From: Malacoraja senta | Lineage: Eukaryota | DNA: 64,000 bases | Direction of reading: 5' to 3' | Assembly: GCA_038087875.1 (NCBI GenBank) | Contig: CM075987.1 | Location: forward strand, 24,120,001 to 24,184,000 | In this document: piece by piece, positions 631-52,721 of the stretch | Position numbering within the stretch: position 1 is the stretch's first letter | How the letters are laid out: each line of letters begins with the position of its first letter | Made by a program: the position numbers and the translations under genes | The notes under the pieces: generated by a model | The model's input: the letters and a program-made list of their open reading frames with translations, nothing else | Told to the model about the DNA's origin: nothing | Database searches by the model: none

Positions 631-1657
631 CTAAGTTCGCCTCCTCTCTCCGACGAGAGTTCTGTAACATCCTCTCCTCAAGGTATTTCGCAGTCACTTC
701 CGTTTGAGCACTGGGCTTCATTCCCATTTCTCTCTTGCAATCAGATCACTGAAGATGACAGGAAAGAGGTCGGGTTCATCTAAAATGCACAAGTTTGGGG
801 TTTGATGAAATATTTTCCACACGCCTTTTGGGTACAAACTCTGACAGTACTCAAGAAGTTTGATGGCAAATGAAAAGAGCCTGTTTAATTAGCATCTAAT
901 CCACCATCTTGAAATTTATTCTCTCCACAAAGCTAGCAACGTTGATGGCTGTGTTTATAAGTTCATAGGTTCTAGGAGCAGAATTAGTCCATTCGGCCCA
1001 TCAAGTCTACTCCACCATTCAATTATGGCTGATCTATCTTTTCCTGTCAACTCCATTCTCCTGCCTTCTCCCCGTAACCCCTGACACCCGTACTAATCAT
1101 TGGTTTATGGCTGTTAGTAAGTATCTCAGTGAGACTACCAGCAGAAGGGGGGTTCACTAATAAAGGTGAGAGTTGGATTTATTCAGGAGGTCTCGCCAGG
1201 ATATAGGAGGAGTGGGTAAGCAGTGGAACAGTGATCAATGAACCACTCAGGGGAAAGACCAGAGGAAATAAACCAGTGCTTTTTAAAGAGACACAAGAAA
1301 CTGCAGATACTGTAATGTGATTGAAAAATCCCTCCCCGGATGCTGCCTAACCCGCTGAGTTCCTCCAGCATAGGACATAGAACACAGAACTGTACAGCAC
1401 AGAAACAGGCTCTTCAGCCCTCAATGTCTGTGCTGAACATGATGCGAAGGATGGCACGGTGGCGCAGCGGTTTAGTTGCTGCCTTACGGTGCTTGCAGCG
1501 CCAGAGACCCGGGTTCGATCCTGGCTACGGGTGCTTGTCTTTACGGAGTTTGTATGTTCTCCCCATGACCTGCGTGGATTCTCTCCGAGAACTTCGGTTT
1601 CCTCCCACACTCCAAAGACGTACAGATTTGTAGGTTAATTGGCTTGGTATTAAATGT

Positions 1658-1709
1658 GGGGTCAAGGTAAGAGCGTTCACTTCACAGCCCTGTTTCCACC
1701 AATCTTTCC
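1658..1709 (+). ncRNA. Minimal HDV-like (CPEB3-like) ribozyme candidate
   Basis: P1 GGGGTC/AGCCCT, P2 GGTAAGA/TCTTTCC, P3 GCG/CAC, L3 TTCACTT, GT, short linker, C-CAA joiner. Confidence 0.55.
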
Positions 1710-1832
1710 GCCACCACACACAAGCACAAGAAGCGACAAGACAGACACCATTGTATGCAGATGCCGAGAAGTGTGTTCATCTCCGGATGAACAACTTCTA
1801 ATCTTGTGTGTGTGGACTCGATAAGAAGAAGA
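1658..1832 (+). mobile_element. Short ribozyme-headed retroposon, family A copy 1
   Basis: Imperfect TSD TGGTATTAAATGT / TGGTACTAAAGT; ends in ATAAGAAGAAGA; second copy on minus strand at 27079-27260. Confidence 0.8.
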
Positions 1833-5281: not shown

Positions 5282-5306
5282 TCGCACTCGCACTCGCACT
5301 CGGACT

Positions 5307-5352
<46 letters not shown>

Positions 5353-5400
5353 AATATATATGTGAGTGTGAGTGTGAGTGTGAGTGTGAGTGTGAGTGTG

Positions 5401-5481
<81 letters not shown>

Positions 5482-5505
5482 ATAAATATATATATATATA
5501 TACAC
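5251..5505. repeat. Compound microsatellite (CA)n-(CTCGCA)n-(CA)n-(AT)n-(GTGAGT)n-(GT)n-(AT)n
   Basis: Directly visible. Confidence 0.95.
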
Positions 5506-5551
5506 ATAAAAACAATCAATAATAGTGTAAAAAGACAAAACCAATGCCCCC

Positions 5552-7496: not shown

Positions 7497-7660
7497 ATGT
7501 GTGTGTGTGTGTGTGTGCGTGTGTGTTTGTGTGTGTGTGCGTGTGTTTGTGTGTGTGTGTGTGTGCGTGCGTGTGTGTGTGCGTGTGAGTTTGTGTGTGT
7601 GTGCGTGTGTTTGTGTGTGTGTGTGTGTGTGCGTGCGCGTGTGTGTGTGTACGTATGTAT
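7284..7660. repeat. Degenerate (GT)n microsatellite
   Basis: Directly visible. Confidence 0.95.
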
Positions 7661-7674
7661 TTGCATGAGCACGT

Positions 7675-7940
7675 AAAACAGGCGTGAAAACAGGCCCTTC
7701 GGCCCACCGAGTCCGCACCGACCATTGATCACCCGTAAACTAGTTCTATTTTACACACGAGGAATTTACAGATGCCAATTAACCTACAAAAGTGCACGTC
7801 TTTAGAATGTGGGAGGAAACCAGAGCACTTGGAGAAAGCCCATGTAATCACAGGGAGCACGTACAAACTCTGTACAGACAGCATCCATGGTCAGGATGGA
7901 AACCGGATCTCTGGCGCAGTAAGGCAGCAACTCTACCGAT
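7675..7940 (-). mobile_element. V-SINE
   Basis: Reverse complement of SINE consensus (AAACAGGCCCTTCGGCCCAC..AAGGCAGCAACTCTACCG). Confidence 0.8.
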
Positions 7941-26600: not shown

Positions 26601-27078
26601 ACTGGCCCCCCTTCATCATGTATCTGTACACTGTGGATGGCTTGATTGTAATCATTTATTGTCTTTCTGCTGAGTGGTTAGCACGCAACAAAAGCATTAC
26701 CTCAGTACACGTGACAATAAACTCAACTCAAATCAACTGGCTGAGTTACTCCAGCACTTTGTGTCCTTTTCGTAAACCAGCATCTGCAGTTCCTTGTTTC
26801 TACCTCGGAGATATCATTGAGCTTGTATGAATCATCTTATTTTTCCTCCATAATATTTCAAGTCAAAAGTTGATTTACTAGAAAAAGCCAGAAAAAGAAG
26901 ATAAACTGGAAAAGAATTGTTCAAATAAGTTGTGCAATTATTAGAAAAATTATAATAATCATGTTTGACTAAAATGTCGATTTGCTTGAAAATCTGGTTT
27001 AGCATAAAAAAAAAGCCATAGAAGCTAGGAACAGGAACAGGGCAGTTGAACATTTGACCCTGGTTCTCTGATCAATAT

Positions 27079-27260
27079 TCTTCTTCTTATCGAGTCCACA
27101 CACAAGATTAGAAGTAGTTCAGCCAGAGCTGAACACACTTCTCGGCATCTGCGTACAATGGTGTCTGTTTTGCGCTTCTTGTGCTTCTTGTGCGAGGTGG
27201 TGGAAAGATTGGTGGAAACAGGGCCGTGACGTGAACGCTCTTTCCTTGACCCCCCCCCCC
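27079..27260 (-). mobile_element. Short ribozyme-headed retroposon, family A copy 2
   Basis: Perfect 11-bp TSD CTGATCAATAT (27068-78, 27261-71); reverse-complement match to 1658-1832. Confidence 0.85.
27202..27253 (-). ncRNA. Minimal HDV-like (CPEB3-like) ribozyme candidate
   Basis: Minus strand GGGGTC AA GGAAAGA GCG TTCACGT CAC GGCCCT GT TTCCAC CAA TCTTTCC; P2 is a perfect 7 bp. Confidence 0.65.
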
Positions 27261-27753
27261 CTGATCAATATGACAATGACCAATTTTACTTTGGAGTCAC
27301 GTTAGTGACTACGTGAAGAAGACCCGTCAGGGCGCATGCGCATCATTACGTCTGACGCATTGGCGCCCGGCAGCAAGAAGACGGAGCTCCTCCTGCAGGT
27401 GAGTAGTTTAGAGCTCCACCAAAGTCGGGGAGACTTTGGAGGAGTTAGTAAAAAGTAGAAAAATTGTTGCTGTATGTTTTTCCCCACAATACAGGAACAA
27501 GGAAAAAATTATCAAGGTGCAGGCGTGCTACGGACAAGGAGAGAGAGAGCTGCGGGAGCGCAGTCTCTGAAAGGCAGCCTGTCACCTCTGGGGAGTCGCA
27601 AGCCGGTAGCGGTGCGGCGACAGACTTGGCACTCCCAAGTGCCCAGCCGGGTACACAGCCAACGCCATTCGGGCATTAGGCATAAGCCAAGTCTGTCAGG
27701 CCCATTGACTCCACAGAGTCGGGCCAGGAGAGTCCCGTACGGGACAGGATACC

Positions 27754-38810: not shown

Positions 38811-40384
38811 TACCAACATTCTTGAAGTTCTAGATGGTATTACCGGGCAAAGCATTTGCAGCTGCATTTATCTGGAAGTGATAATTCCCTCTGTCCCTGG
38901 CGATCCTTTGTGATTTTCAGTTAGTTCAATGCACTCCGTGTGACGTCAAGGAATAGAGTGCCCACGAAACACCAGACACTTAGTACTTTGACAAAGTCCC
39001 AGTGCAGCACTAAAAAACCCATGCTCCGTTATTATCTGCCACTCTGTACACGCCATCCCAATACATGGGAAGCACTGGCAGCTCCCATTCCGAGTGGAAA
39101 ATTGTCCAAGTTAGTCGCAACCAACAAAACAGAATGAACTCAACCCAGCCACATGTCAGTCCACACTAGATCAGCTTCAAATATAACGCAATGTGCCATC
39201 AATTACACGGGAAGTTGCCAAATCGTGGGCAAAATAACTCAATTACCGATAGACACAAAATGCTGGAGTAACTCCGCGGGTCAGGCAGCATCTCTGGAGA
39301 GAAGGAGTCTGACGTCTGAAAAACGTCACCCATTCCTTCTCTCCAGAGATGCTGTCTGACCCGCTGAGTTACTCCAGCCTTTTGTGTCTATCTTCGGTGC
39401 AAACCAGCACCTGCAGTTCCTTCCCACACACTTAATTCCAGAGTTGAGGTGAAAATGACTGTCCTTTGAATGAACATGGAATAAAGGACCTTGAGTAAAA
39501 ATAAAATCATTGGGATGACTCCTGCCAAGCTTAAAGAAGGATTCTTGGAGGCCAACCATATCCGCTCGTTGCAAGAGTTGCTCAGGGCAGCAATACCTTC
39601 CTGCCTCTTAAATGGTCACTGCATGGTTGGAAGTGGGAATGTCACAGATGATAGCAACTTTCAATTCCAAATGCAATTCCACTGTAATAATTTAGCCACC
39701 TATTTTGTTACATCACGCAAAATCAGGGGAACTGTGTTATCAGAGAGTACAACTAAAGGTGAGACTTTTGAAGAAAATCACCTCTGCCATTTCAAGTAGG
39801 AGTTAAAAAATAAAAAAAAAACCATGGTGTTATTTGAGGAAAAGCAAAAGGATTTTCCTGGCTTATATCTATCCCCACAATCACCAGCATAATTGTGATT
39901 GCCTGCATCTTGTTATGTTCATAAGATTATAGGATCATAAGTGATAGGAGCGGTATTAGGCCATTTGGCCCATCAAGTCTACTCCACCATTCAATCATGG
40001 CTGATCTATCTCTCCCTCCTAACTCTATACTCCTGCCCTCTCCCTATAACTTCTGACACCTGTACTAATCAAGAATCTATCTATCTCAACTTGGCCTGGT
40101 GTGATTGCTTAGATAGCGTAGGTAGGTAAAGATGTTGTGACGTATTTTCAGGTTAGATCCTCATGCCGTTTGCTAGACTTAGCCTGGTGGTTGACAGGGA
40201 GAGCTTTGTCATTTCTTTCAGAAGCAGTCCCAGAAAACCAGAAAATAATTTGATCCCAAATCTTGATCCATCATCCCGAAAAGAAGGAAAGAGTTGTGAC
40301 AAAACCCTGGCTCTGTCATGACCAGGTTTCAGCACGTTGCCTAATGCTTCTGCACGACCCTCCATTTGAGACAGGAGGGTTGAG

Positions 40385-41440: not shown

Positions 41441-42778
41441 CTACTGAAAGCACAACAGGCCAAATAGCATCAGTCTATCCATGGTCCTCCTGACCAGAAT
41501 TTATATTCCAAATATTTAGTCTCTAAGCCGATACCAGATTGAGTTTAAAGCAATAGCGTTGCAGGAGGTTAAGGCATTACATGGTTCAGTATGTTTAGCA
41601 TCGTCTTTTTGTTTTTCAATAGAATACTGTCTGCTCTCAATTATTTTCTATCTTAATGCAGACTCACAGAAGGAATACCTTTTAGCAAGTGAATTATTTA
41701 TATGTTGCTGGGAATTTTGGCAAGTGCACAGTTCCACTTTCAGTATTACTGTAAGTGCCACACCGATATTTTACACAAATCAACCTGTTTTCAGTGCCAG
41801 CAAACATCATAATTAACTACGTGCCATTTAGTGCATTTGGGAAAATATTGCTGTTCTGGTAAAATGGTTAGTTGCTGCCTTCAGTTACAGAATGTTCTAA
41901 TTAATTATAGCCTTGAGTGCCGATATTTCAGAGAGATAATTGAAGTCTTTCTTAAATGTTTCCTGAATGTACAGAAGAACTTCCTGAGTATAATTGCTAT
42001 TGTTGATATTTGGCTCAGTCCCGATCCCGGATCATATACCCACATTTCATGAAACGTCTTGTTTCCAATAAGTAACAGTGAGACTCAAAAGAGTCGTGCA
42101 CAACTTTTTCTAATAGAGGCAGAAATGTTATATTGTTATAATAGACCATACAAGAAGCTAACTTGATGACAAAGCATCTATGTTAAGTCATTGCCTGGGC
42201 TCAGCTTAAGTGCATTCTGCGTGCAGCAAGTTATGAAATCAATGCAAACTGAATGTTCCAGATACTGTACATAGAAGCTGAAAGAAGCTTAGTGCTATTT
42301 ACAAATCGAAGTTAAAACTCTTGGCATTAATTCATCAAGGTATTTTCAGGTCATCTCTGATTATCAATGGCCCTCAACAATGGCCCTCAATTGCTCACTT
42401 CTTCCTACTTATAGTTTGAAAGATTCTGTAACTTTTCTCGTAATTGCATTTGACTTCAAACAGGTTGTTCCTAGATTGCGCCCAATCTAGAAAGATTTGC
42501 ATTCGTAAAGCATCTTCCGTAATCAAAATGCTTCATAATCAATGACGTACTTTGAGGACGCAAGGAACTGCAGATGCTTGAATCCTGAGCAAAGCACAAA
42601 GTGCTGGAGGACTCAGCGGGTCAAACAGCATCTGTGGAAAGAATGAACAGGTGACGTTTCGGGTCGGTACGCTTCTTCTGACTGATGGAGTGGGGGGGGG
42701 TGGGGAGAAAGTTGGAAAAGAGATGTAGAGGCAACGCAAAGAGTAGAAGCAGGAACAGGTCACTTCGCCCCGCAAGAC

Positions 42779-49254: not shown

Positions 49255-49810
49255 TTTAGTTTGGTTTAGTTATGTTTAGAGTTACAGTGCAGAAACATGC
49301 CCTTCGGCCCACTGAGTCCGGGCCGACTACTGATCCCCATAGACTAATTCAATCCTGCACACTGGGACAATTTTTTTATTTTTTATTACCGAAACCAATT
49401 AACCTACAAACCTGGGGTAGGCAAAAGTGCTGGAGAAACTCAGCGGGTGCAGCAGCACCTATGGAGCAAAGGAAATAGGCAACGTTTCGGGCCGAAACCC
49501 TTCTTCTGAGTCTGAAGAAGGTTTTCGGCCCGAAACGTTGCCTATTTCCTTCGCTCCATAGATGCTGCTGCACCTGCTGAGTTTCTCCAGCACTTTTGTC
49601 TACCTTCGATTTTCCAGCATCTGCAGTTCCTTCTTAAACCTACAAACCTGCATGTCCTTGGAGGGTGGGGGGGAGGGGGAAAACCAGAGCACACGGGGAA
49701 AACCCATGCAGGACACGGGGAGAACGTGCAAACTCCGTACAGGCAGCACCTGTAGTCAGGATCGAAACCCGTGTCTCTGGCGCAGTAAGACAGCAACTCT
49801 ACTGCTGCAT
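49255..49810 (-). mobile_element. V-SINE interrupted by Penelope inverted pair (49415-49636)
   Basis: TSD AACCTACAAACCTG at 49401 and 49637. Confidence 0.8.
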
Positions 49811-50985: not shown

Positions 50986-51863
50986 ATTTGGCGGCAATTG
51001 GGAGCAACCTTGCGTCCTTTTCATTCTGGTTTCCAAGTGCAGTGGCATTTTGCAGCGGCATTTTGCTGCGATGACAAAACGTTCATCCTGCTGGTCATGC
51101 ACTGGATGTCGCTTTGACACGGTAATACAAGGAACCGCAAATGCTGGAATTCTGAGTTAAAAACAGAACGTTAGAGCAATTCAGCAGGTCAGGCCACATC
51201 TGTGGAGGGAATGGACAGGTGAAGTTTCGGTTCGGGGTAGACAAAAATGCTGGAGAAACTCAGCGGGTGAGGCAGCATCTATGGAGCAAAGGAATAGGTG
51301 ACGTTTTGGGTCGAGACCCTTCTTCAGACTGATGTGGAGGTGGTGGGGGGGGGGGGGGGGGAAGAAGAAAGGAAGAGGCTTCAGGGTGTTTCTGCAAGGG
51401 ACCCGTTACAACCATCTCGGCAGGTAAGTGAAGAAGGGAAAATAAAATTACTGTGCAACTTAAAATTTTCAGGACTAGGAACGAGAGATTTCTGTATTTA
51501 ATGGTATCAAGGGGTATGGTGGAAAAAGGCAGCCCCATGGGTAAAGGAACAAATTAATTATTGCGGAACATGTTCGAGAGGCTGTGCCCATCTCCTCTCT
51601 TTGCATTCAGCTGTGAATTACCTGGACCGGTTGCTGTTTCAAGCACATGAATGGCTGTGGAAACCTCACTGGTAATAAACAGTACATTCAATTTGAAGCA
51701 ATCACTGTCCCAATGGATCATCAGAGTCCTTGGTTGAAGATGCGGGATATTTTAATATTTTTAGTTTAGTTTTTAGTTTAGTTTAGAGATGCAGTGGGGA
51801 AACAGGCCCTTCCCCCCACCGAGTCGGCAGCGACCAGCGATCCCCGCGCATTAACACCACCCT

Positions 51864-51932
51864 GGCCCCATAGCAGAAGCGTCCACGTCGCTGGGGGCTG
51901 GAAACTGGAAGTATCCCGAGCTAATTCTGCTA
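51864..51932 (+). ncRNA. HDV-like (CPEB3-like) self-cleaving ribozyme candidate
   Basis: P1 GGCCCC/GGGGCT with G1.U wobble, P2 TAGCAGAA/TTCTGCTA (8/8), P3 GCG/CGC, L3 TCCACGT, P1.1 CC/GG, P4 GGA-AGTA-TCC, J4/2 CTAA. Confidence 0.8.
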
Positions 51933-52060
51933 CCACCGTCATCTATTGCGACAAGTGATGGCTCCCGCATTGATTGTCGCCGGAAGTTTGCGTCCTTTTC
52001 TGGACGGACGATGACAGCGATGTCAACATTTGAAACATGGAAGATCGACACGGAAGAAGA
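51864..52060 (+). mobile_element. Short ribozyme-headed retroposon, family B
   Basis: TSD ACACCACCCT / ACTCCACCCT; ends in CGGAAGAAGA; inserted antisense in a V-SINE. Confidence 0.8.
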
Positions 52061-52721
52061 ACTCCACCCTACACACACACGAGGGACAATTTTACATTTA
52101 TACCCGTCCAATTAACCTACAAACCTGCACGTCTTTGGAGTGTGGGAGGAAACCGATGATCTCGGAGAAAACCCACGCAGGTCACGGGGGGGGGGAGCGT
52201 ACAAACTCCGTACAGACAGCACCCGTTGTCAGGATCGAACCCGGGTCTCTAGCTCTGTAAGGCAGTAGTTCTACCACTGCACCACCGTGCCGTACATCCC
52301 ATTTGTACTCAACTACACAATTATCACAGAAAGCAATAAACTTTTGAATCAGAGTTCTTGAATTTCCTTATCGTCTTGACGATGGAATTATGAGATTAGC
52401 AGATATTATAGTGTTGCCATATAAATCCTTAAACTTTGAAACCAGGCTAATATTTGAGAGCTTAACTATATGGCCTCAGCGGCATGTTGCAAATGATCCT
52501 CATTTCTAGTGAGCCTGTACGATTCCTGGACCAGCTGCATTTAGCTCGTTGCACATTGCAATGAATAAAAGAACGTTATTTAACATTTAAACATAAACTC
52601 AAAGAGCACCTCATCTTCCAACTTCCTCGCAAACATTATCAAAAGCAGAAAGTCTGAAATACTAATTATTTATGAGAGCTTTTAGATGTTTTAGATACCT
52701 TTTAAAACTTAAAAGTAGAAT

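Follow-up and report, generated by a model that had tools for sequence, protein, structure and literature searches.

Positions 51864-52059 of the window analysed here (the whole 64-kb stretch of Malacoraja senta DNA) very probably hold a dead copy of a promoter-less retroelement that resembles a short interspersed nuclear element (SINE), begins with a ribozyme-like head related in fold to that of hepatitis delta virus (HDV), and is moved by a lineage of RTE-like long interspersed nuclear elements (LINEs). This reading is carried by the anatomy of the element's family (family A) and of a second one (family B), their copy numbers, exact 5′ ends and target-site duplications (TSDs), covariation between families, partner LINEs, and matches to the Rfam model of the mammalian CPEB3 ribozyme (RF00622), all observed directly. 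We also lean, with less assurance, toward the CPEB3 ribozyme itself being the domesticated 5′ head of a retroelement from the same lineage.

The family A copy lies on the plus strand, and its first letters, GGCCCC, stand at the cleavage-site G of an HDV-like fold with helices P1 to P4. Its features are as follows.

51853-51863, no strand: upstream TSD copy, AACACCACCCT, abutting the element's first G
51864-52059, plus strand: family A non-autonomous retroelement, a mutated copy with ~93% identity to other copies, from genome matches
51864-51931, plus strand: HDV-like (CPEB3-type) ribozyme head, 27.7 bits with RF00622 and 82.6 bits with our own fold model (R1), and parsed by fold
51879-51891, plus strand: core GCG-TCCACGT-CGC, from inspection of the window letters
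51932-51937, plus strand: ACCACC directly 3′ of the P2 3′ strand, also seen in families B and E
52045-52059, plus strand: 3′ terminal box and purine repeat, here TCGACACGGAAGAAG, family form GGACACGAAAGAAGA(AGA)n
52060-52070, no strand: downstream TSD copy, AACTCCACCCT, 11 bp with one mismatch to 51853-51863

The helices of this head are P1 GGCCCC/GGGGCU with a G1.U pair, P2 AGCAGAA/UUCUGCU and P3 GCG/CGC, with UCCACGU as loop L3 and CUAA as join J4/2. Between P3 and the P1 3′ strand there is a 2-nucleotide (nt) TG insertion; hence, to judge by its letters, this copy is probably dead in catalysis. It is 93.4% identical to a near-consensus family A copy (L005), its 3′ end (...TCGACACGGAAGAAG) stops at about 52059, and the flanks on both sides read on as a single repeat, which we take to resemble a tRNA-derived SINE of sharks and rays. 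A CPEB2-like last exon of this genome has 99% identity to proteins from nine species of cartilaginous fish and 95-97% to those from bony vertebrates, a narrow difference that agrees with such a SINE and with a genome of cartilaginous-fish type. A first-pass annotation of the window had given these elements a TSD of 10-13 bp, in agreement with the 11 bp found here, and a 3′ TCGA end; a terminal box is present, but the TCGA of this copy proved to be a mutated form of the family's TGGACACGA.

Family B is represented in the window by two copies.

27078-27253, minus strand: family B non-autonomous retroelement with tail ...GGACTCGATAAGAAGAAGAA, ribozyme head at 27202-27253
27254-27260, minus strand: seven extra G between the upstream TSD copy and the element's GGGG, read from the letters
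27261-27271, no strand: upstream TSD copy, 11 letters, ATATTGATCAG on the minus strand
27068-27078, no strand: downstream TSD copy, the identical 11 letters
1658-1832, plus strand: the other family B copy, in a more decayed state, with its ribozyme head at 1658-1709

The head at 27202-27253 has no P4 helix, and the CGC of its P3 is changed to CAC. The copy at 1658-1832 has 89.9% identity to a near-consensus B copy (L037), with several changes in the head. The seven extra G are possibly an untemplated addition at the 5′ junction, and the same seven-G junction is found in a duplicate contig (L031).

We found that RF00622 matches all three window copies, at 27.7 bits (51852-51931, plus strand), 22.4 bits (27202-27262, minus strand) and 17.5 bits (1646-1709, plus strand), values seen only at permissive thresholds since the curated gathering score is 35 bits. 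At gathering scores no Rfam family matches the window, and CPEB3_ribozyme is the sole HDV-type Rfam family that matches the three copies. Our own fold model scored 82.6 bits for the A copy, 55.0 bits for the B copy at 27253 and 43.5 bits for the B copy at 1658. The window contains the core GCGTYCACGT two times, where 0.08 occurrences are expected, and 1 of 100 shuffles reached that count, so chance is unlikely. These results bear out the earlier proposal that A and B, although different in body, follow one design with a 5′ HDV fold around a GCG-TYCACGT core, into which the three window copies (one A, two B) fit; the CCACC placed just downstream of the fold is the ACCACC at 51932-51937.

The same annotation had seen no recognisable RNA polymerase III A and B boxes, and our searches concur: the A/B-box pattern is absent from both strands of A and B, and ARAGORN found no tRNA-like fold at the three window copies. 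Hence, families A and B are SINE-like in size and copy number only and are not classical polymerase III SINEs.

Across the 1.94-Gb assembly that contains the window, family A is a ~193-nt element with its head at the cleavage-site G and its end at GGACACGA plus (AAG)n. It gave at least 2012 first-look candidates, and all 40 that were scored span the whole 197-nt query, 39 at 92-93% and the other being the query locus. Family B gave at least 2337 first-look candidates, with 40 of 40 scored matches near full length and mostly at 95-96%; for both families the top matches were picked with full-length queries, so the frequency of truncated copies cannot be read from them. The head stands at the expected 5′ position in every copy that was fetched, 30 from family A and 30 from family B. 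A TSD of at least 8 bp with at most one mismatch abuts the first G at 25 of the 29 distinct loci of family A and at 21 of the 28 of family B, as counted by a script that missed at least the window's B copy at 27253, where the seven extra G separate TSD from element. Tails of the copies are (AGA/AAG)n of variable length.

Near-identical A sequence also occurs in public sequencing runs, under six coded organism labels from ten studies. When contigs of four runs were aligned to an A copy (182, 92, 30 and 4297 pieces), loose ends fell mainly at the first base and in the tail, and no internal LINE/SINE junction was found among them.

With RF00622 applied to the whole genome, 59 candidates were scored, 51 of them at E ≤0.001 and 39 above 35 bits, the best at 64.2 bits; none of 14 control genomes had a match. 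Eleven candidates were fetched and yielded the further families D, E, F and G, with these RF00622 scores.

Family D: 59.7-64.2 bits, head of an autonomous LINE
Family E: 59.7 bits
Family F: 39.2-51.4 bits, old and rare
Family G: 48.2 bits
Family B variants: 37.4-43.7 bits
Family A near-consensus copy: 37.2 bits, above 35
Family B near-consensus copy (L037): 33.1 bits, below 35

Rfam HDV-type families other than RF00622 have no match to the A, B, D, E, F and G heads.

The fold was assessed on an alignment of A, B and one row of a further family C (22 pairs, 12 distinct rows). The proposed double pseudoknot left 93.1% of cells paired, compared with 33-54% when the partners were slid. P1 is 100% paired, with G1.U in 12 of 12 distinct rows, and P2 and P3 are each 94% paired, a 3-bp P3 closing the 7-nt L3. 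P4 occurs in A only, B having a 5-nt linker in its place; in P1.1 the C21-G35 pair is invariant and the second pair is Watson-Crick in family A only. Two P1 pairs and four of the seven P2 pairs differ on both sides between A and B, and no P1, P2 or P3 pair is broken in the near-consensus copies of A, B and D. Across families A-G we found six versions of P1 (GGCCCC, GGGGTC, GGGGCC, GGGGATC, GGGGGTC and GGGGGCC), six of P2, each pairing with its own 3′ partner at 6 or 7 of 7 positions, and four of the P4 hairpin. A C followed by NAA precedes the P2 3′ strand in all parsed near-consensus copies (a decayed F copy, L203, reads TGAA), and we assume that this C of J4/2 would be the catalytic one.

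P1 and P2 are thus kept paired by compensatory change across families that differ in sequence, and hence selection appears to have acted on RNA structure and not on a DNA promoter sequence. The conserved ~66 nt could otherwise be mainly an internal promoter or a protein-binding or translation module comparable to Pr77, the ends at G1 then marking transcription initiation; indeed, the first 77 nt of L1Tc/NARTc are described, in PMC3383444 and PMC3185411, as both promoter and ribozyme, and a dual role of that kind may apply here too. We consider a role without cleavage quite unlikely, since the compensatory changes hold the helices together and since the short elements have no open reading frame (ORF), so that a translation role cannot account for the retained fold. 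From these comparisons, and indirectly from the element 5′ ends and TSDs that abut G1, we infer that the 5′ HDV-like head of A, B and D is a self-cleaving ribozyme.

Autonomous partners are present as well. These LINEs are ~3.1 kb long, with a single ORF encoding endonuclease and reverse transcriptase and a ribozyme at the extreme 5′ end. Members of the RTE clade are ~3.2 kb long, with very short untranslated regions and a 3′ end of short tandem repeats, and by this anatomy the partners, which we call D, E-type and H-type LINEs, appear to be RTE-like. The first-pass annotation had called for an autonomous LINE sharing the ends of the short elements and had offered either an Ingi/Vingi-like or an RTE-like one; the partners found, with both activities in a single ORF, a ribozyme head and the shared 3′ box with (AAG)n, are RTE-like and not Ingi/Vingi.

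In the D LINE (L193), ATGATG and a long frame follow ~30 nt after the ribozyme (~100 nt from the 5′ end; ORF ~1000 aa) with no ORF1, and the Pfam domains are Exo_endo_phos, Exo_endo_phos_2 and RVT_1. The L193 ORF contains one in-frame TGA and a deletion of 2 nt; in two other D copies the TGA site reads GGA and the frame ends at TAG ~30 nt before a tail ...CAAAGACACGAAAAGAAGAAGA of the (AAG)n type, the D LINE tail form being ...GACACGAAAAGAAGAAGA. Three full-length copies are flanked by 9-12 bp duplications with ~3.14 kb between them. A protein search of the genome found D copies with 93-98% identity, of which two keep their frames open over 1008 and 1014 aa, together with more distant LINE subfamilies at 48-57% identity. 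Moreover, 11 of the 51 RF00622 matches lie directly upstream, on the same strand, of an ORF match of this LINE lineage.

The tails tie the other two LINEs to A and B. The E-type LINE (L207/L208), from the 57% subfamily, has an E ribozyme head and the duplication GCATCTGTAA, and its end, AAGGACACGAAAGAAAAA, equals the A terminal box at 15 of 17 positions. The H-type LINE, from the 50% subfamily, ends in GGACTCGAAGAAGA(n), given also as AACGGACTCGAAGAAGA(n), and the last 46 alignment columns of B match this end at 33. A distant relative with 51% protein identity (L201, from a contaminant contig) ends in GGGATGGACACGACGATGATGAT with the same terminal box; hence, judging from these ends, the box is a feature of the LINE lineage.

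The H-type LINE has a head of its own. Six H copies start at GGCTGC (L205 and L214 miss one or two first bases) with unrelated DNA upstream; the idea that L205 was truncated within its ribozyme was ruled out, as five further copies start at GGCTGC with a different HDV-like head. The first ~95 nt gave sub-threshold matches to three other HDV-type Rfam families (HDV_ribozyme, HDV-F-prausnitzii and drz-agam-1), with scores of 21.9-26.1, 21.3 and 14 bits, and a fold drawn by hand suggests P1 GGCUGC/GCAGCC, P3 ACC/GGU, L3 UCCCCGU, P2 AUACAGA/UCUGUAU and a long P4. These heads lie at two sets of positions.

L205:194-290: H-type head
L213-L217, at the 3′ ends of the loci: H-type heads

Hence, within a single LINE lineage of this genome, two ribozyme flavours appear to occur side by side, CPEB3-type in D and E and another HDV-like core in H. 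Since the B head (CPEB3-type, no P4) differs from the H-type head although the tail is common, B seems to be a mosaic of a CPEB3-type head and an H-type tail, its partner being assigned from the tail alone.

Relatives of the LINE protein with 48-64% identity were found in aphids, psyllids, moths, crabs, sea urchins, a starfish, amphioxus, notothenioid fish and Anolis. The contigs that hold these homologues are often 3.0-3.4 kb long, and the homologues carry generic names only. A single-sequence protein search of further genome and viral contig collections gave no relatives, and an alignment search of further contig collections gave three 5′-truncated contaminant contigs and no 5′ ends from other taxa. 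A young L1-like LINE (L061; G000:C1:107523000-107531200) was rejected as a partner, having no ribozyme and no (GAA)n tail. It encodes an ORF1 of 341 aa and an ORF2 of 1269 aa, and its family looks recently active, with many genomic RVT_1 matches of identical scores and 1271-aa open frames.

Together these observations suggest how the short elements may move. A promoter-less copy would be transcribed inside a longer host or read-through RNA; its ribozyme would cut just 5′ of G1 and so give the exact element 5′ end; the LINE reverse transcriptase would recognise the 3′ box and repeat; and target-primed reverse transcription into a nicked target would leave a duplication of 9-13 bp. Co-transcription, excision from read-through RNA, any effect on host pre-mRNAs and the assignment of each short element to a LINE subfamily are the inferred parts of this scheme. 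If it holds, a short, high-copy retroelement of a vertebrate can have an HDV-like ribozyme for its 5′ module in place of a polymerase III promoter, and thousands of potential self-cleavage sites would be scattered through host transcription units.

Several observations weigh against this reading. All three window copies (A and both B) are mutated within the fold. The apparent absence of 5′-truncated short copies is biased by the full-length queries. The covariation rests mostly on differences among two to six families, which amount to few independent events, and two of five shuffle measures were not exceeded (223/500 and 500/500 shuffles reached the observed value). Among the partners, the E-type LINE is known from one copy, in which ~10 nt are missing at the 5′ end, and the B head does not agree with that of the LINE whose tail it shares.

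The link to mammals comes chiefly from family F, whose five matches are 83-88% alike over ~100 nt. Between them, the F copies have P1 GGGGGCC/GGCCCCU (L203/L190), J1/4 GU, J4/2 CGAA, P2 AGCAGGA/UCCUGCU and a P4 of CAGAUUCU...AGAAUCUG (CAGAUUC.../...GAAUCUG). Relative to the Rfam consensus, P1, the P4 stem and J4/2 are the same, as are 6 of 7 P2 pairs, and the seventh P2 pair is changed on both sides. In copy L190, 18 positions in a row agree with the consensus (GGCCCCUGUCAGAUUCUG), and by hand count 52 of 61 aligned positions do. The annotation's reading would have been refuted by a likeness to CPEB3 confined to structurally forced positions; the likeness goes well beyond these, in that F shares P1, P4 and 6 of 7 P2 pairs while other families differ in P1, P2 and P4.

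Such likeness might arise by convergence on a constrained fold without common descent: HDV-like ribozymes are said to have only a few positions that never vary (PMC8256844), the window A copy (27.7 bits) and the near-consensus B copy (33.1 bits) both fall under the Rfam cut-off, and cartilaginous fish and mammals have been separated for a very long time. However, the freely variable helices do vary in this genome, with the six P1, six P2 and four P4 versions of families A-G, and the H-type head even has another P3/L3 core (ACC/GGU with UCCCCGU), yet family F still has the consensus P1, P4 stem, J4/2 CGAA and all but one P2 pair, L190 has its unbroken run of consensus positions, and the CPEB3-type heads match no other HDV-type family of Rfam. 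Hence, because other families in the same genome vary P1, P2 and P4 freely, we hold convergence to be unlikely, and we place the probability that the CPEB3 ribozyme and the fish heads descend from a common ancestor well above one half, to the extent that sequence can tell.

Our somewhat favoured account of that descent is domestication of a retroelement head from the RTE-like lineage found here, in which, with the same moderate confidence, an F-like element would have entered a CPEB3 intron in an early mammal, shed its body and tail, and kept its head. The direction could also be the reverse, with the retroelement lineage capturing a host ribozyme, as sequence similarity alone shows no direction. 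Against this stand the wide spread of the lineage's protein relatives, at 48-64% in insects, echinoderms, amphioxus, fishes and a lizard, the HDV-like ribozymes on RTE elements of other animals (PMC3774820), and a statement in PMC8233481 that the CPEB3 ribozyme does not occur outside mammals. In addition, none of the five F copies (on contigs C1, C3 with two, C8 and C10) shares a contig with a CPEB-type ZZ-domain exon, such exons being on C2259, C2128, C15 and C17. The CPEB3-type matches in this genome are dispersed and multi-copy and are not a single locus orthologous to the mammalian CPEB3 intron. We therefore judge capture from the host to be very unlikely and continue to favour domestication.

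A review proposes in general that conserved vertebrate ribozymes, CPEB3 included, were domesticated from retroelements (PMC7761336). Here, in a vertebrate that is not a mammal, the heads of LINE families and of SINE-like ones pass the curated CPEB3 threshold, and family F shares even the freely variable helices, which turns the general speculation of that review into a specific, testable hypothesis of descent. If it is true, the fish families are the missing outgroups for reconstructing the pre-mammalian history of the CPEB3 ribozyme. The families also supply natural ribozyme sequence variants for functional work.

Some observations stand apart from this argument. Family C, with 1507 first-look candidates, is a non-coding repeat, rich in AT and at least 1.15 kb long. 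Embedded ~960 nt inside it are the opening 61 nt of an A-type ribozyme, with 5 mismatches. There TTACCGTT replaces the usual P2 3′ strand and pairs instead with AACGGTAA just 5′ of the cleavage-site G. Its interpretation as a LINE fragment was ruled out, the repeat being AT-rich, non-coding and without a tail. The head copies are as follows.

L057:2737-2800, minus strand: family C head
L062:1353-1416, minus strand: family C head
L063:1346-1411, minus strand: family C head

At L188:200-470 (minus strand), ~38 nt after an F ribozyme, there is a repeat of another kind, at least 270 nt long, for which the genome gave 5916 first-look candidates. A metagenome scan for AGCGTYCACGTCGCGG returned at least 118 stretches, the best at 29.3 bits with R1 and none like a retroelement head, and we took them as chance in GC-rich DNA. 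The contig with this best score (L085:5985-6045) has an intergenic GCGUCCACGUCGC core and a P2-like pairing of 7 bp, directly before a ribosome-binding site and ATG; with no convincing P1 drawn, either chance or a minimal HDV-like ribozyme may account for it.

Elsewhere in the window, a Pfam scan of 15 of the 20 ORFs of at least 150 aa gave no domain, and no host gene was recognised. Three further kinds of feature were noted.

41821-41914: tRNA-Thr(GGT)-like fold of 94 nt (ARAGORN), probably the head of a tRNA-derived SINE
5300-5520 and 7545-7780: (GT)n/(AT)n microsatellites, the source of clustered, spurious microRNA matches below threshold
39279-39361 and 49473-49545: a pair of long, almost perfect hairpins with sub-threshold mir-515 and mir-722 matches, which may be inverted-repeat transposon remnants

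Ribozyme-headed retroelements have precedents. HDV-like ribozyme-terminated non-long-terminal-repeat retrotransposons (R2, R4, RTE and Baggins) were reportedly described by Ruminski et al. in 2011 and by Eickbush and Eickbush in 2010. As in those elements, the ribozyme here is at the element's first base, where cleavage would define the 5′ end of a co-transcript; in contrast to them, the Rfam CPEB3 cut-off is reached, high-copy, short and non-coding derivatives carry the head, and the elements live in a vertebrate. It is established that R2, R4, L1Tc and RTE elements can have HDV-like ribozymes at their 5′ ends (PMC3774820, PMC8256844).

Non-autonomous carriers that keep both the HDV-like 5′ ribozyme and the 3′ end of an autonomous partner are likewise on record, namely NARTc/SIDER with L1Tc (Pr77) in trypanosomatids and the R2 SIDEs of Drosophila (PMC3383444, PMC4035085, PMC3414825). 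They share that arrangement with the families described here, whereas their LINE clades are ingi and R2 in other hosts and R2 SIDEs are specific to ribosomal DNA; here the copies are dispersed in their thousands and are not known to have a promoter function. Closer in tail are the short RTE-derived elements of mammals, MAR4, RTESINE1, Bov-A2 and RTE1-N1_LA, which are non-autonomous and join a head labelled "5′-end of RTE" to an RTE tail (PMC3747384). The table in that source mentions no ribozyme for them, while the head here is an HDV-like fold and B joins two lineages. Twister-variant ribozymes at the 5′ ends of Schistosoma non-long-terminal-repeat elements and of RTE elements (PMC8501958, PMC7761336) similarly provide self-cleavage for 5′ processing and differ in ribozyme class.

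Compared with the mammalian CPEB3 ribozyme itself (RF00622), the P3/L3 core GCG-UUCACGU-CGC, J1/4 GU and J4/2 CGAA are the same. The differences are that the fish ribozymes are dispersed, multi-copy retroelement heads whereas CPEB3 is one conserved intronic locus, that in family A P1 is flipped (GGCCCC/GGGGCU), J4/2 reads CUAA and P1.1 has both of its pairs, and that family B is without P4. Within the literature library searched, full-text searches found no published link between the CPEB3 ribozyme and RTE elements or cartilaginous fish, although a prior description may exist. Relative to these known systems, in which ribozymes on RTE LINEs were already familiar, what is new here is the set of vertebrate SINE-like, ribozyme-headed derivatives and their sequence-level link to CPEB3.

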